DNA of 64,000 nt from a virus. Its lineage: Duplodnaviria > Caudoviricetes. The translations under genes were made by a program, and so were the position numbers. Under the pieces are notes generated by a model that was not told the DNA's origin, made no database searches, and saw nothing but the letters and a program-made list of their open reading frames with translations. Location: the IMG/VR virus record IMGVR_UViG_3300034061_006011; one strand, 5' to 3'. Positions 14,711 to 51,269 of the stretch are shown here, one piece after another (the stretch's first letter is position 1; the number at the start of each line of letters is the position of its first letter).

Positions 14711-15376
14711 TCATTCAGATAACAGAATCATTTCTAATTCCCCCCCACGGATTCCCATTGAAGGGAATCCCTTGGCTGAATAAATTCTTTCGATTGCGTC
14801 TTCGGACGTTAGCCCGAAGACGTTTTGCAATTGTTGGAACAGGCACTTCAAATGGCGATCCAGTGCCAACTTTGTTATCACAATAACAAAGTTTTCAATG
14901 GTGCCGTTAACACGGCACGCCGTCCCAGTGGGACGGTTGATTTCAAAATTAACCGTCCCAAGACGGTTCACATCCCACTTATAACGCCCACTGGCGGATT
15001 GATCCGCCGGTGTTGGTAGTGGGTGTTGACAATTACAATAAGTATCCTGATCCGCATTGAAATAGTCCGCCCAATCAATGGGCGTTCCAATGCACGCCCA
15101 AAGATGCCCAAACGAATGGGCGATTTTACGGGACACCCGCAATTGTGCGGGTGTCATTTTTGAAGTCTCAAAACTGAATTCATCGGGATACCGAAGTGGC
15201 TCGCCACTCCAGTGGCGTGAACAGTCTCGCTTGCCCCGTAGGGCAAGCGATGCGATTTCAGCGGCATTGGGTGCCGCAGCGTTCTTCCTGATCCAGTGGT
15301 TGAGATACGCAACACGACCGGTTGCGGTTGCGGTTGCGGTTGCGGTTGCGGTGGCGGTGGCGGTTGAAATGGTCAT
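14711..15376 (-). CDS. Hypothetical protein with N-terminal Thr-Ala repeat
   Basis: Start moved to MTISTATAT, downstream of promoter and leader hairpins. Confidence 0.6.
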   Translation of the reverse strand: MTISTATATATATATATATGRVAYLNHWIRKNAAAPNAAEIASLALRGKRDCSRHWSGEPLRYPDEFSFETSKMTPAQLRVSRKIAHSFGHLWACIGTPIDWADYFNADQDTYCNCQHPLPTPADQSASGRYKWDVNRLGTVNFEINRPTGTACRVNGTIENFVIVITKLALDRHLKCLFQQLQNVFGLTSEDAIERIYSAKGFPSMGIRGGELEMILLSE

Positions 15377-15738
15377 GTTCGATACTCTCATGCCCGTTTC
15401 AGGTACGGGTGGACCTTGGCTAAGGTGAACCACAACATGCGGTTCACCTACGACTATCTTAACATCATCCCCAACTAGGTCAAGAGAAAATCCACCCAAG
15501 AGAAAAGATTCCTCCCATCCACATTTTAGTATCCTAGTGTTGTCTCAATTGTCCAGCAATAGGATTCCTCCCATCCACATTTTAGTATCCTAGTGTTGTC
15601 CACATTGTCCAGCAATAGGATTCCTCCCATCCACATTTTAGTATCCTAGTGTTGTCTCAATTGTATCAATTCAGATAACAATAAAAAAACCCCCTTGACT
15701 TGTCTGTCAAGGGGGTGGTTGATTAAGTTAGCCGATTG

Positions 15739-16956: not shown

Positions 16957-17475
16957 TCATGTTGTCGTGTGTGATGTAATCTTGATCACATTATTGGAAA
17001 CACCTTGATAAACCGGAGACATCTTACCCGCATGAGTGAACTCAATTCCGTAATTGGCACCGACACGGAATTCGGTTTCCGTTCCGGGTTCATAAGCCAC
17101 GAAACCGATATTCGTTGCCTCATGAACAAAGTTCACGATGCGAGTTGGTTTCCCATATCCCCAGCGTACTGGTGAAACCCCTACGCATATCACTTCAATA
17201 TTGTAATTACCCGGCTCAATCGCTTGAGTGATTGGCGTTGGCAATTTAATAGCTGCAATTGGTGCAAGTGGTGCAATTGGTGCAATTGGTGCCACTGGTG
17301 GCACTTGCGCCACTGGTGCCACTGGTGGCACTTGCGCCACTTGCGCCAACGCTGCCCTAAGCGTTGCCAATTGTTCGGGGTTGAAACCCCGAACAAGATC
17401 AAGCATCGACTGGCTTGCATCGATTGCCACTGGTGCGGAAACGGACTTGGCGTTCTTGCGGGGTGCCATGGTCAT
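16957..17475 (-). CDS. Hypothetical protein with Pro/Ala/Val/Ile low-complexity linker
   Basis: Start moved to GGAG-led MTMAPRK at 17475. Confidence 0.65.
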   Translation of the reverse strand: MTMAPRKNAKSVSAPVAIDASQSMLDLVRGFNPEQLATLRAALAQVAQVPPVAPVAQVPPVAPIAPIAPLAPIAAIKLPTPITQAIEPGNYNIEVICVGVSPVRWGYGKPTRIVNFVHEATNIGFVAYEPGTETEFRVGANYGIEFTHAGKMSPVYQGVSNNVIKITSHTTT

Positions 17476-17791
17476 AAACTCCATGCCAGTTTCAGGATAC
17501 TGGCGGAACCGGTTAAGGTGAACCACAACATGCGGTTCACCTACAAGCATCATAGGGAAACCGTTTCACTAGGTCAAGCGAATTCCCAAGAAAGTTTCCT
17601 TACAAATTCTTAAGATCCGCGGACCCCCCCCCCTCCCATCCACATTTTAGTATCCTAAAGTTGTCTCAATTGTCCAGTCTGGTAACAAAAAAGGAATTCC
17701 TCCCATCCACATTTTAGTATCCTAAAGTTGTCTCAATTGTTTCTAAAAAAAACAAAATTAAATTATAATATTTAATTTCATAATTAAAATA

Positions 17792-22860: not shown

Positions 22861-23190
22861 TTATTCTTCTTTAAATGGTAATTCTTTGTGGTGCCGAATA
22901 CGAAGGAGTTTAGATTCTGAATCGGTTAAAGAGTTATTGCAGACTACTCTAACTTCATTAAGTTGGAGTTTTTCCATCAACTCCTTTAATTGGATCTCTT
23001 CCGTTATTGGTTGTACCATTGCAAATGGTACATAGGGAAGATCATCTACTTCTCCTATCTGTGTCCCATTTGGTGTTTCATACTCCACCTGATCACCTGC
23101 AACGAACTCCTGAGACACGAACTTGTTGTCTTCAAATCTTTGGATAACAAAACCGTGCGTAATCTTATAAACCATCTCTTGATACTCCAT
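22861..23190 (-). CDS. Hypothetical protein whose C-terminus is a DUF932-derived patch
   Basis: SDSESKLLRIRHHK-like segment shared with 25755 gene. Confidence 0.6.
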   Translation of the reverse strand: MEYQEMVYKITHGFVIQRFEDNKFVSQEFVAGDQVEYETPNGTQIGEVDDLPYVPFAMVQPITEEIQLKELMEKLQLNEVRVVCNNSLTDSESKLLRIRHHKELPFKEE

Positions 23191-23968: not shown

Positions 23969-24129
23969 CTTGATACTCCATTGGTTTGAAAGCAAGCCAT
24001 TTGCTTTCGTGGATGTATTGTATCAGGTATTTGGTTTAGTGTCAATGTTTTTTTTTGGTATTATGTTTGCATAAAAAAACCCCCTTGGGTGTTATCCAAG
24101 GGGGTTGATATGGTTGGTGTTGATATGTG

Positions 24130-25754: not shown

Positions 25755-26735
25755 TTAGTTAGCGACTTGGACGGCTAGGTCTAACGCCCGTTTGTTCATA
25801 TTAGCTGATTGACCGAACCAGAGGGAGGTGTATCGGTTATCAGGGTTTCGTCCGGCGTTGTGAGAGAGGTGTTCGGTGACTGCGTTGTAAGCAGACCACC
25901 AAGTACCTTCAGCGAGGTCAGATCCTACGCCGACATAGGCGAGGTCGGTGATTTCTTTGACACGGTTGAAGGAGCGGGTTGACATTTCGCCATCGGTATT
26001 GACATCAACGTCAAGGACTTTGATGACATATTCGACGAGATCCTTGTGGTTAACGATTCTGCTTTTGGCGAGGAATCGGTATTGTTCCATGGTGGCTTGG
26101 AACTCAGAGTTTGCGAGAACCATAATTTCTCGAACTTTGTCGAGAACTTCGGTTTGTCGTTTGTGGTGCCGAATACGGAGGAGTTTAGATTCCGAATCGG
26201 ATTTAGCTTGAGCTAATGTATTAGCACAAACTACACGGACTGGGGTGAAACCTGCACGGGTGGATTGAGTCCCGTCGAATGAAGTGGAAAGAAGGATATA
26301 GCGTTTAATCGCATCACCTTTAACGACTTCGGATTCTTCTTCATTAACTTTGCACATAGCAAAGATAACCCTACCTCCTTTGAGGACACCGGCGGTTTCA
26401 AAAGTAGCTAGACCTGAGTCAACAACAGGTTGAAACCATTGAAGAGCTTCACTTGGTTGAATTGGTTCCCATTGTGGACCAACTGTGCCGAGGTAAGCTT
26501 GATCGACATCACGGAGAACGCCGAATGAATCTTCGGTTGGTGTAAATTCTCCGTTTTCGTCTTTGCGGTAGAGAGGGGATTTGTAAACTCCCCAATCCAT
26601 GTTTGCGGCTTTGAGGAAGGACAGATAATTCTTAGTATCATCTCCTTCTACTTTCTGACCGAGTGAGTGCCAACCGGGTTGACCGGCGAAGGCGAAAGAA
26701 GCGACATTATTCCTGTTTTCGATATCGTGTGCCAC
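25755..26735 (-). CDS. DUF932/TIGR03299-family phage-plasmid protein
   Basis: PGWHSLG, FETAGVLKGG, STSFDG..STR..FTPVRVVCANTL, TWWSAYNAVTE, SLWFG; GTG start after GGAG. Confidence 0.8.
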   Translation of the reverse strand: MAHDIENRNNVASFAFAGQPGWHSLGQKVEGDDTKNYLSFLKAANMDWGVYKSPLYRKDENGEFTPTEDSFGVLRDVDQAYLGTVGPQWEPIQPSEALQWFQPVVDSGLATFETAGVLKGGRVIFAMCKVNEEESEVVKGDAIKRYILLSTSFDGTQSTRAGFTPVRVVCANTLAQAKSDSESKLLRIRHHKRQTEVLDKVREIMVLANSEFQATMEQYRFLAKSRIVNHKDLVEYVIKVLDVDVNTDGEMSTRSFNRVKEITDLAYVGVGSDLAEGTWWSAYNAVTEHLSHNAGRNPDNRYTSLWFGQSANMNKRALDLAVQVAN

Positions 26736-26857
26736 TGTCTGAATCTCCTTATAACTGTCGTTTCTGGGCGAAGTTGCCGTTGACGACAGGTGTATTGTAG
26801 CGTGTTTCGGTCGTGGTGTCAAGTGTTTTTTTTTATTTTTTTGGGGTTTGTGGTTGT

Positions 26858-41913: not shown

Positions 41914-42570
41914 TTATTCTTCAAATTGGTCCCTTAGCCTTTCTACGCATTTTTTTGTTATCTGTTGAATGCGTTGTCGTGTAACTCCAAGTTCATCAGC
42001 AATACTTTGAAAACTTTTTTCATTAAAATAATGGTCTATGACTATTTGTCTGTGATGAATAGGAAGAACATTTAGGTTAATATAAAACACAACTTTCTCT
42101 TCTTGTGGTTGCCTTAAAGTTGAATGTTTTGATTTGCTAATTACTTTATCGTTAATTGTAATTAGTTGATAATTATCTTTCCTTCTTCTATTTTTTACAA
42201 AATAGATTTCATAAATCCTTCTAAAGAAAGATGTATAGAAGTATGTCATGAACAAGACTTCACCGGGGATGAAGTATTTCTGGCAGCTACAATAGACATA
42301 TAAAGCAATATTTTTAGCTTCCTCTAAATCTAATTTAATTTTATATTTTTCTTTGAATTTGCTGGCTAATTTTCTGGAGAAGTATGTTGTCATTTTGATA
42401 ATATCTTCTTTAGGAAATTCAATATTTTTAATATCATTGTCTATATTTCTGCGATTTGCTTCATTTTGAGCAATACGCAGAGAATACTTTTTATTTTCTC
42501 TTCCTATCTTTATGTCTACACAATCATTTGTTGTATAGACATATCCATCCTTGGTTTTAGTGTACCACAT
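41914..42570 (-). CDS. Sigma-70-like factor (clear region 4)
   Basis: LPIHHRQIVIDHYFNEKSFQSIADELGVTRQRIQQI. Confidence 0.75.
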   Translation of the reverse strand: MWYTKTKDGYVYTTNDCVDIKIGRENKKYSLRIAQNEANRRNIDNDIKNIEFPKEDIIKMTTYFSRKLASKFKEKYKIKLDLEEAKNIALYVYCSCQKYFIPGEVLFMTYFYTSFFRRIYEIYFVKNRRRKDNYQLITINDKVISKSKHSTLRQPQEEKVVFYINLNVLPIHHRQIVIDHYFNEKSFQSIADELGVTRQRIQQITKKCVERLRDQFEE

Positions 42571-42791
42571 TATTGATCCAATGCTGCAAAAAAGGAAGTC
42601 TTGTGTGACCAGTTCTGATTTTTACTGAACAAAGTGCTACGACGATAGATATTTTTCCAACATGTGGAAATGTATGTCCAGTTTATTGCTATGTTAAAAA
42701 CAGTTGACTGGTTTAATGAACCGAAATCATAAGAACAACCTGATGTAAGCCAAGCTGTATCTTTTGGAATATTTTGATACTTGTTAATCAT
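42570..42791 (-). CDS. Ser/Trp-rich microprotein
   Basis: Coupled to both neighbours. Confidence 0.5.
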   Translation of the reverse strand: MINKYQNIPKDTAWLTSGCSYDFGSLNQSTVFNIAINWTYISTCWKNIYRRSTLFSKNQNWSHKTSFFAALDQ

Positions 42792-43375
42792 GTTTCTTGC
42801 TCCGGTTGATATTCTTGTTCTTCTAATCTAAAAGTCCATGCTACTGCTTGCTGGCATGTTTTAGCAGTTGGTGGAACACAAAGATAATAATCTTTGTATG
42901 TACCATCTGGTTCTTGGGTAGAATTGACTACTTTGACATAAGATACTGGTTCATCAAATATACCTTTTATTTGAAAAAGGATTTGATTTTTTTGTTTATC
43001 TTTGTGGATGATAGTTGTGTTGTTACTTTCTAACACTCTATCCATTCCAACAATTTTAATGCCGACATATCTAACTTCTGTATTAGGATGAGCTAATACT
43101 TCTGTTATTGTCAAGCTATCTGGTTTGGTGTAGAAATGTGGTGGAATTCTTACACCTTCGTAATAATAGCTGATGCTTCCCCATTTATCGGCATCTAGCC
43201 CATGTTTTTTACCATTCCTGTACCAAGTGATACGGGTTGGTGTAATATAAGCGGGACCATCGTCTTTGTGAAGGTTGCCTTCTTCGTTGGTAAATCTTGT
43301 GATAGGTCCAAATGGATATTCTGTTAAGAAGAAATCCAATCGTGCTTTCCACGCATCAAATCCGTTATTCTTCAT
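42788..43375 (-). CDS. Conserved phage protein (DUF6745-like)
   Basis: LHKDDGPA; VKVVNST.EPDG...YYLCVPP....QQAVAWTF. Confidence 0.65.
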   Translation of the reverse strand: MKNNGFDAWKARLDFFLTEYPFGPITRFTNEEGNLHKDDGPAYITPTRITWYRNGKKHGLDADKWGSISYYYEGVRIPPHFYTKPDSLTITEVLAHPNTEVRYVGIKIVGMDRVLESNNTTIIHKDKQKNQILFQIKGIFDEPVSYVKVVNSTQEPDGTYKDYYLCVPPTAKTCQQAVAWTFRLEEQEYQPEQET

Positions 43376-43570
43376 TGCTTTCCTCCTTAGTCATCCAGCT
43401 ATCTTGATTCATCTTCCACATAGTGTAGATGAAAGCAAATGCTAGAAATACAACAGTTGTTAGCCAAATGTAATACACGATCATGGTTGTTCCTCCATGT
43501 GTGTATTGTATATGGTTTTTCTTGATGTGTCAAGTGGTTAATTTTGTTTAGTGTTGTATAAATAGGTATT

Positions 43571-45001
43571 ATGAAAAACTTTTATGATTTTTACAAGTTG
43601 TTATCAGAGTCATTTCAACAAAACGATGAGTTTTTGAGTTTTATATTGAATGCTGTTGAAAAAAAGAAGGAAGAATTAGGTAATAACAGTTACATGGATG
43701 CGATAACTAAGCTTAATAGAGAAATTAGAGAGCCGCTAACAAACTTTACAGTAAATGATTATGGGGATTTGATTAGGTTTTTGTATTTCGTTTATGGAGA
43801 CATGGTAAAAGGTGAAGATGATAGCAGTTTTAGACGACAAGTAACATGCATTGGTTATTTTTTCTCACTTGCTGTTACAGATGATGTTCTTCAAAAAAGT
43901 GATATTGTAAGAGTTATAGTAATAAACAACTGCGCTAATCCTAGTATGCCAGATTTTATAAAAGATTTTAAACAATTTGCCTCAAGTCATGGATATAATT
44001 TTGGTTCTAATTGGATTAATCTTTATCGATCTTTAGCGAGCAGATCTGAAATAATTTTTGATGGTTTTACAAATTTATTAACTGACAATAATATGGAACA
44101 ATATGCAAGGTTTTTAATCGACCAAGCAAGTGCATCAGTAGAGCTTCCTGATAATCACAGAATCTTACATAGGGTGACAAGAGAAAACCCAAAAAGAAAA
44201 CATTGGACTAAAAAAGTAAGTCGTTATATGAACCCAGAATTTGTCAAATTAATTGTACCATTAATTCCAGAAAACTTATTTTCTTTACAGCAGGTACAGA
44301 TGGCTGGAAGTGGAATTGCACTTGGACCACATGGTCCAGCGTATGATAACGATGATTTTAGTGAAGAACAGCATGGAAGCATTAAACAACAAATGTTAAA
44401 ATATGACAATGTAAAATTCGGGGAAAATCCTGTTCGTGATGAAATGGTAATACTAGATTTGGCAGCACACATTCTTGATGAGACAGACAACACGGAATTG
44501 TTTGATGGAGGAGAAAACTCAATTGGTGTTAGTTCAATCATCAAAAAGCTTTTTTTTGAAATTACTGACGATCAGGAAGAAGAAGCTATAAGAACGCAAA
44601 AATTACCTCTTTCAAGAACAGAAATAGCTGTGCTTAACTTTTTCTTTAAAGGTCTTAGAAATGCAGTAGTTGAAAAAGTTTTTCCACTCAGTTTGGCACT
44701 TACTCTGTATTTAATTGATGTAAAAGCTGGTTCACGAAAAAAACTTAGTCGAATGGAATTTGAACTTGCTCAAGCAATAAAAGCAAGAAAAGAAAGACTA
44801 GGTATAGATGATTCAGAAGATCATGATTTAGATTTTGAATTCTATCAACACATGGCAGCATTAATGCTTGAAAGTAAAACTTTCCCTTATTTTACTGTCA
44901 GAGGTGTTATTGAACAAATAAGACATCATGAGATGATGACAAAATTTCTTAAAAAATTAGTCAATGAATTAAAAAAAGAATATGGATTAAGTGGATTTTA
45001 A
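43571..45001 (+). CDS. Hypothetical protein with CTS-like start
   Basis: TATAAATA 6 nt upstream; MKNFYDFYKLLSE. Confidence 0.7.
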   Translation: MKNFYDFYKLLSESFQQNDEFLSFILNAVEKKKEELGNNSYMDAITKLNREIREPLTNFTVNDYGDLIRFLYFVYGDMVKGEDDSSFRRQVTCIGYFFSLAVTDDVLQKSDIVRVIVINNCANPSMPDFIKDFKQFASSHGYNFGSNWINLYRSLASRSEIIFDGFTNLLTDNNMEQYARFLIDQASASVELPDNHRILHRVTRENPKRKHWTKKVSRYMNPEFVKLIVPLIPENLFSLQQVQMAGSGIALGPHGPAYDNDDFSEEQHGSIKQQMLKYDNVKFGENPVRDEMVILDLAAHILDETDNTELFDGGENSIGVSSIIKKLFFEITDDQEEEAIRTQKLPLSRTEIAVLNFFFKGLRNAVVEKVFPLSLALTLYLIDVKAGSRKKLSRMEFELAQAIKARKERLGIDDSEDHDLDFEFYQHMAALMLESKTFPYFTVRGVIEQIRHHEMMTKFLKKLVNELKKEYGLSGF

Positions 45002-45015
45002 AAAAGGAAAAAATT

Positions 45016-45348
45016 ATGAAAAACTTTTATGAATGGTTAGAAGAGCGTGATGCTGAAATGCTTAATGAGGCTAAGAAGCCTTATAAGGGATATAATGCAA
45101 AGAAGAACCATCCAGAAGGTGGATTAAAACCATCTTATGCTAAGAAACTTGGTATTCATGCTGGGATTGAAACCAAACGTGAAGCTGAACGTAAGGGTGG
45201 CGTTAAGAAGATGTCAAAGAAGACTCAAGCAAGAAGAAAGTCATTCTGTGCAAGGATGAAGGGCATGAAGAAGAAACTTACAAGCAAAAAAGTTGCAAAT
45301 GATCCAAAGAGCAAAATCAATGCTGCTTTAAGAGTATGGAAGTGCTAA
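45016..45348 (+). CDS. Basic conserved phage protein (DUF6321-like)
   Basis: RRKSFCARMKGMKK...SKINAALRVWKC. Confidence 0.65.
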   Translation: MKNFYEWLEERDAEMLNEAKKPYKGYNAKKNHPEGGLKPSYAKKLGIHAGIETKREAERKGGVKKMSKKTQARRKSFCARMKGMKKKLTSKKVANDPKSKINAALRVWKC

Positions 45349-46324
45349 ACTTGAGTAATCCAAAAACTATAAAAGTTATAATCTTTCCAGCAGAAGGAAA
45401 GATTCAGTTGTGAATTAGTTCTTGCGTATGAAATATGACTATTTTTTGTAAAAATCTTACAATAAAGAATGCCTCTGTTTGTGTAAGAGCTATCAAGTTT
45501 CCAAGAACGTGATGAAGCTTGGGATCTAAACATTTTATTATTTACCTTTCAAATAGTAGAATACTTCTGAGCTAGATTGGTGTAACAACCACATTTGACA
45601 AGCACAATTTTTCCATGTGTATCTTGAAAATGGTGGATAATATCTTGGTTTAGAGTAATGCTGATTACCCCAAAGGGAAGAGGATTGTCTAGCAATCCAC
45701 AGTGATCTAAAAAAATTAGGATTGTTAATAAACATGGCTTTAAATATTTTTACCCCAACATCTTGACGGAGATTGATAGCCAATTGAAAAAGGAGATCTA
45801 GTTCTTGACCAAGGCAAATCATTTTTTGTTTGCCAAGACCAACACTTTTCCGTAGACCAATGTCTTGAAAAGCACATTAGATTAGTAAAAGATCTAAAGT
45901 TAAGAGTTTTAAGAAGTCTCATGTTGTTTGTTCGCTCCTATTCCAATGCATAGAAAAGGCATGTCTCTTAGTCCAATGAAAAGAACAAGGTTTGAACATA
46001 GACCAAGAACAAAACCAACTCATTGACCATAAATCGGATGTAGTTATCTGTCTTCTGAAATAAACAGAACTTGACCTACCAGAAGACCAGCAGTAATTAT
46101 CTGATACACTTTTAATACACACGTTCATTTTCTTTCCTCAACAAACAACTACTTCTAACACTATTGTTCCAATGAACAGATCTGTTTCTACCATGTACAT
46201 GTGCATCATGAAATTGTAAACGACCATGATCAGATCTGCACAATACATCAAAACTAAATGTGTTAAAGGAATAAAATCCTTTAAAAGGGACACATGACAT
46301 TACATTGTTTCTTTTAAAGATCAT
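45345..46324 (-). CDS. Chain of five Ser/Trp/Cys-rich microproteins
   Basis: 46324-46112, 46128-45919, 45922-45740, 45735-45538, 45533-45345; overlapping or abutting. Confidence 0.55.
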
Positions 46325-46557
46325 TATTCAAAGCTCCTCTGCCAGACTTTTGAATCTGGTGCTTGCTCATAAGTCCATTCACACCCATTTGCTTCGATCA
46401 TCACTATATGAGCAATGCTTTCCAATTCAGTCTGGTACTGATTAGCCTCAGCATGTTTTAAAGTTTCCTCGGCTTTTTCGAGAGCCTCATGTCGATCATT
46501 TGCAATCACATCGATTGTGTGTTTTTGCGTCGATGTAATCTTTACAGTGTACTTCAT
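46324..46557 (-). CDS. Hypothetical protein
   Basis: GTG start after AGGAG; TIDVIANDRHEALEKAE. Confidence 0.6.
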   Translation of the reverse strand: MKYTVKITSTQKHTIDVIANDRHEALEKAEETLKHAEANQYQTELESIAHIVMIEANGCEWTYEQAPDSKVWQRSFE

Positions 46558-46571
46558 CGTGCTAACTCCTT

Positions 46572-47428
<857 letters not shown>

Positions 47429-47439
47429 ATATCACCTTA

Positions 47440-47652
47440 TCAGCCTTCTGATACCCATCCAGCTTCGCCTTCCTCTGTATCATATACATTCTGGTTAATA
47501 TAGGAGGTAGCCTCTTCTGCTGTCAAGAACAATTTACAATTGTTAGATGTAGCAAAATCTTCAGCCTGATTGAGATTTGGGAAAACATAATCCAACAATC
47601 GAAAGTCATTAAAGTTCTGACCCGATAAGAAGTAATATCTATTCATTTGCAT
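47440..47652 (-). CDS. Hypothetical protein
   Basis: Coupled to the upstream stop. Confidence 0.55.
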   Translation of the reverse strand: MQMNRYYFLSGQNFNDFRLLDYVFPNLNQAEDFATSNNCKLFLTAEEATSYINQNVYDTEEGEAGWVSEG

Positions 47653-48038
47653 CACCACCAGCTACTATAAAAAACATAAAGTCCATCACCTATTGCTCGT
47701 TTAGCCTGATAAATAAAATCAATATCATTTTCAATTGATTTACTGTCAGGAGGATTATCACCGAAGAAAAACCCTTTTGTATTAGGAAGATTACCTTCTC
47801 TAACATTCTTCTCCAAATTTTCTAAATCTTCTAACGTAAGCATAACATAATCACAATTGAATTCTCCTATTCCACCTTTTTTATAAAACAAATCACTCAT
47901 CCATCCATGAAGATCATGATGTTTGCGCCAGTAAAACAATTGATTCTTATCCAATCCTTCCACAAAAACTGGATTGATGTCTTTCAATTCTATAACATCT
48001 TCTTTTTTAATTGAATAAACAAACATATCAAGTCCCAT
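47652..48038 (-). CDS. Conserved phage protein (MGLDM...YWRK family)
   Basis: MGLDMFVY, FYWRKHHDLHGWM, YSSWW. Confidence 0.75.
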   Translation of the reverse strand: MGLDMFVYSIKKEDVIELKDINPVFVEGLDKNQLFYWRKHHDLHGWMSDLFYKKGGIGEFNCDYVMLTLEDLENLEKNVREGNLPNTKGFFFGDNPPDSKSIENDIDFIYQAKRAIGDGLYVFYSSWW

Positions 48039-48047
48039 GAGATACTC

Positions 48048-48606
48048 CTATATTAAGCCATCACCATCCCAATACATAGACCAACGCCACGGAAGAGACC
48101 TAGTTATTTTTTTTCCAAAAATCGACCATGTAGAACGAACATGACGAAAAGAATCAATATCTCTCCAGTTTGACATCATTCTCGATCCAGACCATTCTCT
48201 GGATCTAATAAATATATTTGATCTCATGATCATGTCATCACCTCTGCCACCATTATATCATAAAACTGATGAAAATCAATGTGATCATTCATTAAATGAC
48301 CAAGACGCAGAACAAATATGCTCATTGTGAACAGAGAAAATTGTAAATCCAGAATAAGAATAATGATTGTTCCATGATCTAGAAATTGATATATCTCTAG
48401 ACCAACACCAATTATTATGATTGCAAGAATTCGATCTAAGAATCATTGTAAGACCAACACCACCCAGAACAGATTTGACCACGATGGTGTTCAGAAAAAA
48501 TGGTAAAACCAGAGAAAGAATAATCATCATTCCATGATCTAGAAATTGATATATTTTTAAACCAAAAATGATACATGTAATTGTTAGAATTTATTCTAGT
48601 AATCAT
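48048..48606 (-). CDS. Three Ser/Trp-rich microproteins, two of them close paralogs
   Basis: 48606-48436, 48446-48285, 48233-48048; shared ISISRSWN..YS.SGFTIFS. Confidence 0.6.
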
Positions 48607-49069
48607 GGTTAGATTCCATTTCTTCATTTTCATTCTGAGAATATGCCTGTTGGTAATTGCTCGTTTTTGAGTTCAAGAGTTTTAGCAAGACTTCGTGATT
48701 ACCTGTTTGGACAACATCACTATCCTTTGTCATTGCTAAACATTTTGCTTTATCGCCAGATAGCCATGCCGCAGTTCCCAAGTAATATTTTGCTTCGCCC
48801 GGACTTTCTTGCCGAGCCTGCTGTGCAGCCTTTTTCATCATACTTACTGCTAATTTTATGTCGCCAGAAAAAGCATGTCTTTGCGCTTCATGCCAAGTAT
48901 CAACCCAATCATTGCTCATCGGGTTGCTGTCACCTTGATACTGTTCATCGCTCTCATTCAACCATTCTGCAAAAGAAAATTTATTTTCTTTAACACAATT
49001 TGGAACTGTTCTATTACCTTTCTTTTTCATGCCTACTTGCTTATAGCCTTTCCAACAAGATTCATTCAT
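48596..49069 (-). CDS. Phage protein with CWKGY...VPNCV motif and TPR-like C-terminus
   Basis: CWKGYKQVGMKKKGNRTVPNCV is a recurrent motif in T4-like phage proteins. Confidence 0.7.
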   Translation of the reverse strand: MNESCWKGYKQVGMKKKGNRTVPNCVKENKFSFAEWLNESDEQYQGDSNPMSNDWVDTWHEAQRHAFSGDIKLAVSMMKKAAQQARQESPGEAKYYLGTAAWLSGDKAKCLAMTKDSDVVQTGNHEVLLKLLNSKTSNYQQAYSQNENEEMESNHDY

Positions 49070-49097
49070 AATTTTACCTCACTAAATTATATATTCA

Positions 49098-49430
49098 TTA
49101 TTCAAACTTTGTAACATATCCGCATTCAAGCTTTTCGTATAAATTCCGACACCATTTAATTATTTCTTCAGGTTCCAAATCTTTACTCATAGTGACTGTG
49201 AAGTGTTGATCGTCTTTGTCTCGAAAGTATGCCACAAAATCATATCCATCAGGAATGATTCTTTCTGGTGTGCTATACCTACTAGTTTGCCAAAACCTAA
49301 GAATAACGGAAAATCTTCTGCCAACACTATCTTTTTGTGAATAACCCCAACATTTATTGTGTTTATCGTTCAGATGATCATATATTTTCTGAGGTTTGAA
49401 TCCAGCAGAAATTATATCTTGTTCTGTCAT
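49098..49430 (-). CDS. Hypothetical protein
   Basis: ORF track; SD-like sequence upstream. Confidence 0.6.
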   Translation of the reverse strand: MTEQDIISAGFKPQKIYDHLNDKHNKCWGYSQKDSVGRRFSVILRFWQTSRYSTPERIIPDGYDFVAYFRDKDDQHFTVTMSKDLEPEEIIKWCRNLYEKLECGYVTKFE

Positions 49431-49504
49431 TTAACATTCCTAAAAAATACCGCTCACATTTTATTGTGAGCGGTGTGTGATTGTTTACCAGCATATTTAA
49501 GACA

Positions 49505-49819
49505 TCAATTATCTAAATTGTGGTAAACCCAGTTTGGTTGGTAGATCAGTTCTACAGCGTTCAAAGAAATGATAACACTCGACCCGATAGGATCTTCCGA
49601 GTTAGGCTTTTCGGAACTAGAAGCCCCAGAAGACTCTACAGCACGGGCTTGGGCAAGAACGCAGCAATCGTCAGTGACCTTGCTTAAGATGCCTCTGTAG
49701 TTAAATCTGGCGCACAGAATGGCAACTGGTTGTCCAATATACTCATTCATAATAGTAGCCATGTTACTACCAGTTGATTTCTCTGGTGATACCCGTGAAA
49801 AAGTCCTTTTAACAGCCAT
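49505..49819 (-). CDS. Sm/LSm-like beta-barrel protein
   Basis: YIGQPVAILCARFNYRGILSKV..CCVL..A...VIISLNAVELI; GGAG-led. Confidence 0.55.
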   Translation of the reverse strand: MAVKRTFSRVSPEKSTGSNMATIMNEYIGQPVAILCARFNYRGILSKVTDDCCVLAQARAVESSGASSSEKPNSEDPIGSSVIISLNAVELIYQPNWVYHNLDN

Positions 49820-50171: not shown

Positions 50172-50207
50172 TATAAACTCCTTTAAAAACACCAGAACAA
50201 TGGACAG

Positions 50208-50281
50208 TACCCCCAGTTGGATTCAAACCAACGACCTACGGTTTAGAAAACCGTTGCTCTGTTCAACTGAGCTATGAGGGC
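50208..50281 (-). tRNA. trnR: tRNA-Arg(TCT), no encoded CCA
   Basis: Acceptor GCCCTCA/TGGGGGT; anticodon arm ACGGT-TTTCTAA-ACCGT; T-loop TTTGAAT (variant). Confidence 0.88.
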
Positions 50282-50345
50282 ATATTGTGTGGACAATTTG
50301 TTTCACTTGTCCACACAAGTATTATAGCAAGTCTGAACCAATTTG

Positions 50346-51269
50346 TCAAGCTTCGTCTTCGTCTTCAGATTCTTTTTCCCAACTCCAGTCTTCTTGTTGT
50401 TCTTCTTCTTCGTTCACATTATCGTCTAAATTTCGTGTTTCTCCTAATGTTTCTATAATTTCTTCTGGAACTGAATTAGGATTCTCTTTAATCATATTAA
50501 GAACCATGCAATACTTTTGTAAATGACTAATTGTAGCCATCAAGGTTTTTTCGACATTTTCATAACCAGACATAATGGTCCTGATTTCTTTGTTATTACT
50601 TGCATATTCTCCGAGCATACTGGTCATAAGTTCAATCAGATACTTAATTACTTTCACATCAATCTTCAAGACTTCCTGAATTTCAGGACTAATAGACTCA
50701 TCTTGTGAATGCTGATTCATTGCATTCTCATCTTGAGTCCGCATAAATTCATAATATCCTTCACAGAAATCTTTAATTGAATTAACGCTATTCTTCCCGA
50801 ATACTTTTACAAATTCTTTCATGTTATGTTTGATAGTACATTTCATTTCAGGTGGAAATATCTTATCAATTTTGCTTCTTTCACAGAATTCGCATTCTGG
50901 ATTATTGAACTTACAAAACTTGCATCCATATTCAGCGAATGCAAATATAACAGAACTAGCCAAGATTGCAGTTGTTCCATGCTGCAATGAATCTTTTTGT
51001 CCAATGTAAGAACATTTAAATTGTTCTCCTTTTTCGTTTTCAAAAGTTAAAATATAAGTTTTATGATTTTTAAGTTTTGGGTTATTATATTTTTCTACTT
51101 TGATCAAGCTAATATTTTTCTTATTCATGAAATCATCAAGTAAACCAGACATTACATTTTCAAATACAGAACTGTTTGTATTATTGTTTTCCATTTTGTA
51201 TATGGAATTTTTCAATGTATTTGGAACAATCTTGCCTTCATAAAAGAAATCTACATTCTCATTGCTCAT
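50346..51269 (-). CDS. Hypothetical protein with CKFC...CEFC cluster and acidic tail
   Basis: Start moved to MSNENV after its own promoter and SD. Confidence 0.65.
   Translation of the reverse strand: MSNENVDFFYEGKIVPNTLKNSIYKMENNNTNSSVFENVMSGLLDDFMNKKNISLIKVEKYNNPKLKNHKTYILTFENEKGEQFKCSYIGQKDSLQHGTTAILASSVIFAFAEYGCKFCKFNNPECEFCERSKIDKIFPPEMKCTIKHNMKEFVKVFGKNSVNSIKDFCEGYYEFMRTQDENAMNQHSQDESISPEIQEVLKIDVKVIKYLIELMTSMLGEYASNNKEIRTIMSGYENVEKTLMATISHLQKYCMVLNMIKENPNSVPEEIIETLGETRNLDDNVNEEEEQQEDWSWEKESEDEDEA

Follow-up and report, generated by a model that had tools for sequence, protein, structure and literature searches.

The hyperplastic regions of T4-type phages are known for promoter-early stem-loop (PeSL) cassettes, in which promoter and terminator bound ORFans and mediate their shuffling (Arbiol et al. 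2010, PMC2839356; Comeau et al. 2014, PMC4122927). Here we analyse fourteen small open reading frames (micro-ORFs) in a stretch of 64,000 nucleotides (nt), called the window below, from IMG/VR record IMGVR_UViG_3300034061_006011 (Duplodnaviria; Caudoviricetes). They are 45-73 amino acids (aa) long, lie all on the minus strand, and form three chains, in the order of transcription C (C1-C3, 48606 to 48048), B (B1-B5, 47428 to 46572) and A (A1-A5, 46324 to 45345), interspersed with ordinary-looking genes of 157, 128, 72 and 77 aa, and one singleton. An earlier note on this DNA had described fourteen coupled microproteins here, and all fourteen are present, joined by ATGA, TAATG, other short overlaps or, mostly, gaps of at most 14 nt. 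We consider it likely, with a probability of about 0.7, that they are a real, selected and coupled family of small proteins evolving by birth and death. The source is consistent with an uncultured T4-like phage of lakes and other freshwater, which fits the capsid-targeting-like tags and the T4 late-promoter motif described below. The stretch recurs in metagenomes of lakes or other freshwater, in 20 runs that belong to 18 studies dated between 2016 and 2025.

By analogy, the locus resembles the arrays of small ORFans in T4-like plastic regions. As in PeSL regions, small, dispensable and lineage-restricted genes of a T4-like phage are inserted, deleted or replaced between close relatives, and a short repeated boundary motif is found at the breakpoints. 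The locus departs from PeSL regions in two ways: what is repeated at the boundary is a junction for translation, made of a Shine-Dalgarno site, ATGA and six N-terminal codons, where PeSL regions have a promoter with a terminator stem-loop; and its ORFs are members of a single family of odd composition, not ORFans unrelated to one another. The junctions are not PeSL cassettes because they are overlaps or gaps of at most 14 nt, which leaves no room for one; the single promoter-like site among them lies in a 51-nt gap between C2 and C3, with no stem-loop beside it. The micro-ORFs also share traits with the small early phage proteins of host takeover and counter-defence (for a review, see PMC11323111): they are shorter than 100 aa, closely packed in operons and quick to turn over, and their promoter is likely to be an early one. 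They differ from these proteins by showing no homology to any characterised member, by their extreme Trp/Ser/Cys bias and by their tandem amplification. Finally, they are like de novo genes, proto-genes and ORFans in being short and lineage-restricted, in lacking a predicted fold, in looking non-protein-like to a language model, and in showing a gradient from unconstrained to constrained copies. What sets them apart from proto-genes is their apparent raw material: hexanucleotide repeats that expand in frame and a duplicated start-stop junction, and not ordinary non-coding DNA or overprinting. The unusual features of the locus are its composition, its self-duplicating start-stop junction and the presence of constrained copies beside unconstrained ones.

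Coding frame and selection

The case for protein-coding genes comes from comparison with 24 related loci, retrieved from IMG/VR and Joint Genome Institute (JGI) metagenomes via the 128-aa anchor gene and peptides of the chain C type. Pairwise ratios of non-synonymous to synonymous substitution rates (dN/dS, NG86 method, against five related contigs) are 0.05-0.45 in most comparisons when the micro-ORFs are read in the frame rich in Trp and Ser, against 0.10-0.34 in the neighbouring genes while either shifted frame gives values of about 1 or above. When changes are pooled with one comparator per ORF, the corresponding ratio of proportions (pN/pS) is 0.41, with 103 synonymous and 181 non-synonymous changes where 19% synonymous would be expected (binomial p=6e-12); two ordinary neighbour genes give 0.20. 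Variable columns over the 24 loci are distributed 138/121/223 among codon positions 1, 2 and 3 (p=8e-9), to be compared with 70/40/121 in ordinary genes. Both ATG and stop codon are retained in 74 of the 78 distinct orthologue sequences. If substitutions as numerous as those observed fell at random, all ORFs would remain open with a probability of about 1e-6 (per-ORF values multiplied). Population variants within the micro-ORFs in four lake metagenomes fall on codon position 3 in 11 of the 17 best-supported cases. These patterns indicate that the micro-ORFs are protein-coding genes in the Trp/Ser frame, under purifying selection of about half the strength seen in their neighbours, and from them we infer translation. 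The proposal of the earlier note, one diversifying family of real genes, is supported, with codon-level constraint; the singleton is a loose member.

The products have a very peculiar composition, and the richness in Ser, Trp and Cys and scarcity of Asp and Glu reported before are borne out by comparison with 29 ordinary genes of the window. Trp makes up 8.2% of the residues against 1.1% (a 7.5-fold enrichment), Cys 4.6% against 0.9% (5-fold) and Ser 19.0% against 6.7% (2.8-fold), while Glu (1.5% against 7.2%) and Asp (3.3% against 6.7%) are rarer. T occupies codon position 1 in 42% of the codons, twice the 21% of ordinary genes. Most members are basic, with isoelectric points of 9-11.5 and net charges of +3 to +8. 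Spacings between Trp residues are even in 83-87% of pairs, where the maximum among shuffled sequences is 0.65, and this holds in the members that are not of low complexity too. An amphipathic beta-strand peptide of the sticker-and-spacer kind would fit the basic charge, the evenly spaced Trp residues and the absence of a confidently predicted fold.

The shared part of the family consists of six N-terminal residues, beyond which the bodies diverge with no common C-terminal core. The common start that had been noticed before recurs as M-I-[LFTM]-[KR]-x-N in seven ORFs, and an eighth starts with MTLKAF. A stricter DNA pattern, ATGATHYTNARRNNNAAY, has five matches in the window where 0.18 are expected, all on the minus strand between 46.3 and 48.4 kb, and six of the seven matches to the motif pattern in a relative of 225 kb fall within 5.4 kb. 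Ile is encoded by ATT, ATC or ATA, Leu by CTT, TTA, TTG or CTC, and Lys or Arg by AAA, AAG, AGA or AGG. Codons 2 and 3 of the motif thus vary freely at the wobble position, which means that the motif is kept at the level of residues, or at least of two bases in three. The start of the micro-ORFs is distinct from the T4 capsid-targeting N-terminus, M-x(1-2)-F-x-[EQD]-[FWY]-[LVI] ending in Glu, which none of them carries.

The hexamer AGACCA/TGGTCT occurs 49 times, against 26 expected, and 21 of these copies lie in the 3.3-kb array region, all on the minus strand. Each of the 21 encodes Trp-Ser in the frame of its micro-ORF, even though the genomic frame changes from one ORF to the next. Repeats of 6 and 12 nt, in up to 19 copies, form the basis of chain B. 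Conservation at the level of the DNA repeat rather than of the codon was what the earlier note had named as refuting its reading; conservation proves to act on codons, except in B2 and B3, the most repetitive copies, where codon-level constraint is absent. Other frames are open over the TGGTCT repeats: 46891-47244 on the plus strand, and 46884-47105, 47111-47263 and 47284-47415 in the +1 frame of the minus strand. The plus-strand frame would encode 117 aa, Arg/Pro-rich at first and then made of Asp/Leu and Pro-Glu repeats, and the plus strand is open solely over the repeats. These additional frames are probably by-products of stop-free hexamers.

We found no Pfam or PHROGs family for the micro-ORFs apart from a weak match of A5 to phrog_23730 (E=2.5e-4). 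A search with A2 against 5.8 billion proteins returned two matches, both from its own lineage. The profile search that the earlier note had called for, made with a C-type alignment against 1.84 billion representatives, likewise led to the same lineage only, with four matches and two spurious repeat ORFs. The tblastn search of 50,697 GenBank phages gave no match, and the ESM Atlas no usable neighbours. No Trp/Ser-rich micro-ORFs surround the anchor gene in its distant relatives (L010-L016, at 40-51% identity), which restricts the family to the close lineage. It is therefore a lineage-specific family of small (45-80 aa), mostly basic, Trp/Ser/Cys-rich proteins in a hypervariable accessory region.

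Junctions and turnover of the arrays

Four junctions within the arrays are ATGA overlaps, a fifth such overlap is at the start of the singleton, and two are of the TAATG type. The other junctions are overlaps of 7, 11, 11 and 17 nt, gaps of 4, 4, 9, 11 and 14 nt, and the single gap of 51 nt. A GGAG, GAGG or GGTGA lies 7-12 nt upstream of most starts, within the final codons of the preceding ORF. C-terminal endings that recur, such as ...SWSK[NS]I here and ...NG[DE][IL] in relatives, are explained by this position of the Shine-Dalgarno sites. Consensus matches suggest two sigma-70-like promoters on the minus strand. One, at 48252-48279, is an extended -10 match in the C2-C3 gap (TTGATT, 16 nt, TG, TATAAT), and the other, at 49086-49115, lies upstream of the 157-aa gene and chain C and is itself preceded by a strong bidirectional terminator (49449-49474). 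The T4 late motif was not found upstream of the chains, nor any tRNA or Rfam match in the region; two tRNAs lie at 50.2 and 53.6 kb. At the other end of the arrays, the stop codon TAG of A5 (45345-45347, minus strand) overlaps the stop TAA of a convergent gene with a DUF6321 domain (45346-45348, plus strand), and the probable early and late transcription units consequently meet with no intergenic terminator.

The junction is itself a duplicated unit. A unit of 101 nt is present in three copies at 46861-47349 (minus strand), spaced by 215 and 173 nt and with 84% and 60% identity to the reference copy. It contains the tail of one ORF, the Shine-Dalgarno site, the ATGA and the first 14 codons or so of the next ORF. 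Similarly, C1 and C2 are paralogues that share a direct repeat of 130 nt at 75% identity. The number of copies varies widely among relatives: between the 128-aa and the 77-aa anchor genes, eleven distinct haplotypes hold 1, 1, 1, 2, 4, 5, 5, 5, 5, 6 and 8 micro-ORFs, over anchor-to-anchor distances of 454-1927 nt. Contigs from lake metagenomes reveal joints of deletion and of duplication (back-step) inside chain B, and deletion joints in B2. The differences from relatives are insertions or replacements of whole genes, the breakpoints of indels are at ORF junctions, and the exchanged cassettes code, among other things, for a hexapeptide-repeat transferase, a methyltransferase and a Mom-like protein. 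In the metagenomes, sequencing depth rises 10- to 100-fold at 47124-47351, over the GSGSGS/TCTGGT repeat, reaching about 4150 in one run; most likely this is cross-mapping of low-complexity contigs of other organisms, and contigs break there.

Proposed mechanism and alternative explanations

Our best guess for the function of the family is that it provides early accessory peptides which evolve by birth and death. The arrays would be transcribed from the sigma-70-like early promoters (49115-49086 and 48279-48252) as polycistronic mRNAs, on which terminating ribosomes would re-initiate at each junction. The products may be amphipathic beta-strand peptides, with one face of Trp and Arg/Lys and another of Ser, that probably bind a polyanionic or interfacial host target, be it nucleic acid, the envelope or a host protein, and act as dispensable factors of host takeover or counter-defence. 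Arrays would grow by duplication of units that carry the junction and by slippage of the 6- and 12-nt repeats, and shrink by deletion. Selection would retain some copies (A1, A2, A4, B1, B5, C2), and the newest and most repeat-rich ones (B2, B3) would drift. We hold the specific part of this scheme, beta-strands acting on a host target, to be speculative and rather doubtful.

Several observations weigh against such a scheme, or against parts of it. The putative target and the time of expression are drawn from composition and consensus matches only, and none of the RNA runs searched contains the stretch. Recognition by a language model is about 1100, within the range of shuffled sequences and not protein-like, and AlphaFold2 gives no confident fold, with four beta strands at a predicted local distance difference test score (pLDDT) of 56 for C2 and no fold at a pLDDT of 38 for A1. 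The even spacing of Trp could be a relic of the hexanucleotide repeats rather than a structural constraint, and that the N-terminal motif serves the initiation of translation, and not the peptide, is a live alternative. Selection is also uneven. B2 has no excess at the third position (6/2/6 over orthologues, 12/13/13 in another count) and a dN/dS of 0.85, B3 has no codon-level constraint (variable columns 8/7/4) and C1 shows little third-position excess, so some members may be translated and yet unconstrained. Furthermore, the orthologue comparisons are few per ORF and share phylogeny.

The unevenness could also mean that the locus is a nursery of genes, in which de novo protein birth by repeat expansion is in progress, the newborn B2 and B3 drifting and the older A1, A2, A4, B5 and C2 being constrained. 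We regard this as possible, though tentative. The self-contained junction, with its Shine-Dalgarno site, ATGA and an efficient M-I-[LF]-[KR]-x-N start, would duplicate along with slippage-prone in-frame hexanucleotide repeats, and because both are copied together each new unit would be translated at once as a Trp/Ser-rich peptide. All stages would coexist and segregate, as 1 to 8 copies, in lake populations. The locus bears on the origin of phage ORFan genes and on the role of the millions of phage small proteins, since it pairs purifying selection with a visible mechanism of growth, junction duplication and repeat slippage. Its copy number is moreover polymorphic across no fewer than 18 independent studies of lake metagenomes. 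Functional peptides would amount to a Trp-rich basic effector of a new type; should many of them have no function, the locus would offer a rare side-by-side comparison of expressed proto-genes and their matured descendants. It also calls for caution in annotation, because ORFs under the usual length cut-offs and of a composition unlike that of proteins can be real genes.

A different explanation for the tight coupling throughout is that the micro-ORFs are relays or fillers, translated only to hold ribosomes on a long early transcript, by coupling and by protection from Rho-dependent termination or RNases, with peptides that have no function. Freely variable copy number, the lack of a predicted fold, the non-protein-like language-model score and the position of chains B and C ahead of ordinary genes would all fit, as would the absence of codon-level constraint in B2 and B3 and its near absence in C1. 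We nevertheless find this improbable. Fillers do not account for the pooled pN/pS of 0.41, with several ORFs at 0.05-0.3, for N-terminal residues conserved amid synonymous variation, or for a composition and Trp phasing that persist family-wide in diverged members, and chain A closes the operon with no gene downstream. A leader-peptide attenuator of the trp type would have clustered regulatory codons and, ahead of the regulated gene, alternative terminator and antiterminator hairpins. The Trp codons here are spread across the 45-73 codons, terminator-like matches are weak and inside repeats, and, again, no gene follows chain A; codon-level selection on the peptides argues against this reading. 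Two further ideas, for their part, were rejected. Reassignment or readthrough of TGA, TAG or TAA neither merges the ORFs nor opens longer frames, and the arrays are no pseudogene, that is, one long gene split by frameshifts, because the pieces have their own Shine-Dalgarno site, ATG and N-terminal motif and show the same segmentation in relatives.

The peptides themselves invite comparison with darobactin and triceptide precursors and with Trp/Arg-rich cationic antimicrobial peptides, which share W-S-K-S-like motifs, richness in Trp and Lys/Arg, and positive charge. The earlier note had listed precursors of ribosomally synthesized and post-translationally modified peptides (RiPPs) among its suggestions, and Trp-x-Lys/Asn cores cross-linked by a radical SAM enzyme might be sought in these short Ser/Cys-rich ORFs with many W-S-K, W-S-N and W-S-R triplets. 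The core of darobactin is WNWSKSF, and its likeness to WSKS is a lead only. We judge this suggestion most unlikely: the micro-ORFs have neither a modifying enzyme that could be found nor a leader or signal peptide, and their products are much longer than indolicidin-type peptides. The likeness is one of composition only. The search for modifying enzymes advised at the time was run and found no radical SAM or YcaO gene in relative contigs of 225 (52% complete), 71 and 42 kb (338 kb in all, from incomplete genomes), nor such a domain in the 20 ORFs of the window scanned with Pfam (among them 10 of the 12 that reach 250 aa or more); its lanthipeptide part, a LanC search of the relative contigs, is uninformative, its control also being without a match. 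There is, besides, no leader/core architecture or conserved C-terminal core in these basic bodies of 45-80 aa, whose copy number varies freely. Just as unlikely is a chain B product made from the +1 frame (Gly-Leu-rich, hydrophobic GLxLGL peptides that would resemble membrane glycine zippers), or the use of both frames. Both in the window and in relatives, the TGGTCT repeats leave this frame open, and B2 and B3 have no third-position bias in the Trp/Ser frame, but openness is expected because GGTCTN repeats contain no stop codon. Moreover, its start is not conserved (where one copy has ATG, the paralogue has ATA) and has no Shine-Dalgarno site, and its ORF boundaries differ among relatives, whereas the Trp/Ser frame always has a Shine-Dalgarno site, an ATG and a coupled stop. 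The least credible option, which we consider largely refuted, is a non-coding DNA or RNA repeat element, in which AGACCA/TGGTCT arrays would be protein-binding sites or structured RNA and the ORFs accidental. Repeats of period 6 and 12 in up to 19 copies in chain B, and the plus strand being open at 46891-47244 as well, would be compatible with it. Yet the repeats are restricted to chain B; the sequence of chains A and C is complex and varies at the third position, and their ORFs are intact in all relatives, the 21 hexamers are all in frame, and there is no Rfam or tRNA match.

Individual micro-ORFs and their neighbours

The members that we consider a family of selected small proteins differ in their degree of conservation. 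In chain C, C1 (48436-48606, minus strand as all others; 56 aa, start MITRIN) has its start in an 11-nt overlap with the end of the 157-aa gene and is under weak constraint (pairwise dN/dS 0.4-0.9). C2 (48285-48446, 53 aa, MILRSN) overlaps C1 by 11 nt and is intact in 13 of 13 distinct orthologues, with variable columns 8/13/24 at codon positions 1/2/3 and a dN/dS of 0.13-0.34. C3 (48048-48233, 61 aa, MIMRSN, net charge +6) is preceded by a promoter-like site and by a Shine-Dalgarno site of its own, GAGGTGA; nine orthologues are intact, with variable columns 21/16/26.

Chain B opens with B1 (47291-47428, 45 aa, 18% Trp, MFKTGECCC), the N-terminal half of which is kept in relatives (dN/dS 0.04-0.21). 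It is followed by B2 (47118-47294, 58 aa, MILKHN), with GSGSGSGS and WSWS repeats and an ATGA overlap at both ends, and by B3 (46903-47121, 72 aa, MILKSN, 15% Trp), made of 12-nt repeats that read WSKS. B4 (46730-46906, 58 aa, MTLKAF) has a GGAGGAG Shine-Dalgarno site, an ATGA junction upstream and a TAATG junction downstream, and variable columns 6/10/14. The less Trp-rich B5 (46572-46730, 52 aa, MIFRIN) closes the chain, with eight intact orthologues, variable columns 5/3/14 and a dN/dS of 0.06 against locus L002.

Chain A starts with A1 (46112-46324, 70 aa, MIFKRN), which has a TAATG overlap with the 77-aa gene; against L004, its substitutions are 2/2/14 by codon position and its dN/dS is 0.07. 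A2 (45919-46128, 69 aa, Trp/Ser/Cys-rich) overlaps A1 by 17 nt and has a dN/dS of 0.12-0.31 and variable columns 21/17/35. A3 (45740-45922, 60 aa, net charge +8) has an ATGA overlap with A2 and a dN/dS of 0.29 against L002. After a gap of 4 nt, A4 (45538-45735, 65 aa, MFINNP) follows; of its changes against L002, 11 are synonymous and 3 non-synonymous (p=2e-6). The last ORF, A5 (45345-45533, 62 aa), ends on the stop of the convergent gene at 45016-45348 (plus strand). Several ORFs have longer alternatives with upstream starts, at 45822, 46921, 48530 and 48633. The singleton (42570-42791, 73 aa, MINKYQ) has an ATGA overlap with a DUF6745 gene and a 1-nt overlap with a sigma-like gene. Its fit to the family is loose, given its start and its 5.5% Trp; its three substitutions against L020 all fall on codon position 3, and it is absent from the more distant L021.

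The anchors of the copy counts are the 128-aa gene upstream (47652-48038, minus strand) and the 77-aa gene downstream (46324-46557, minus strand), the latter located between chains B and A. A Limnohabitans phage has a distant homologue of the anchor gene, which is no more than a weak pointer to the host. The 72-aa gene (minus strand) spans 47440-47658 from a GTG start at 47658, or 47440-47652 from the first ATG, and is swapped for a Mom-like gene of 147 aa in some relatives. On the plus strand, the convergent gene of the DUF6321 family (45016-45348) starts with MKNFYEWLEE, a T4 capsid-targeting-like tag. The product of the gene at 43571-45001 (plus strand) also begins with such a tag (MKNFYDFYKLLSE), and 7 nt upstream of this gene lies a T4 late-promoter motif, TATAAATA (43557-43564, plus strand).

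Relatives differ from the window at the edges of the arrays as well. In L002, the 157-aa gene (48596-49069) corresponds to an ORF of 463 aa (L002:2021-3412) with a different and longer C-terminal part; about 950 nt are inserted immediately before the start of C1, and the enlarged ORF has no Pfam domain. The same locus has an extra family member (L002:1451-1663, 70 aa, start MIMKLN) between homologues of 49505-49819 and 49098-49430, where the window has only the bidirectional terminator at 49449-49474. An ORF of 60-64 aa with Cys and Trp and the start MTRNIY, absent from the window, follows the A2 orthologue in relatives (L002:6383-6565, L003:7818-8000, L004:4292-4483 and L006:5460-5654), and in L002 the next gene after it is a methyltransferase of 192 aa.

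Elsewhere in the window, a perfect sigma-70 consensus (50321-50349, minus strand; TTGACA, 17 nt, TG, TATAAT) lies directly upstream of a tRNA-Arg(TCT) gene at 50207-50281; AGA is the main Arg codon in micro-ORFs and ordinary genes alike. The peptide stretch SESKLLRIRHHK occurs both in an ORF of 109 aa (22861-23190) and in one of 355 aa (25755-26822), which suggests a duplicated gene fragment, and the ORFs at 23995 and 25259 have the common starts MLSNQWSIKM and MLSYQWSIKM. VGEPHVVVHL is found near the starts of the ORFs at 14711-15499 and 16957-17553, and the plus-strand frames near both have in common a segment ...GFQGNREPR.GTLCAAS. These last two shared segments point to a repeated DNA element in the island at 14.6-21 kb that contains parB.

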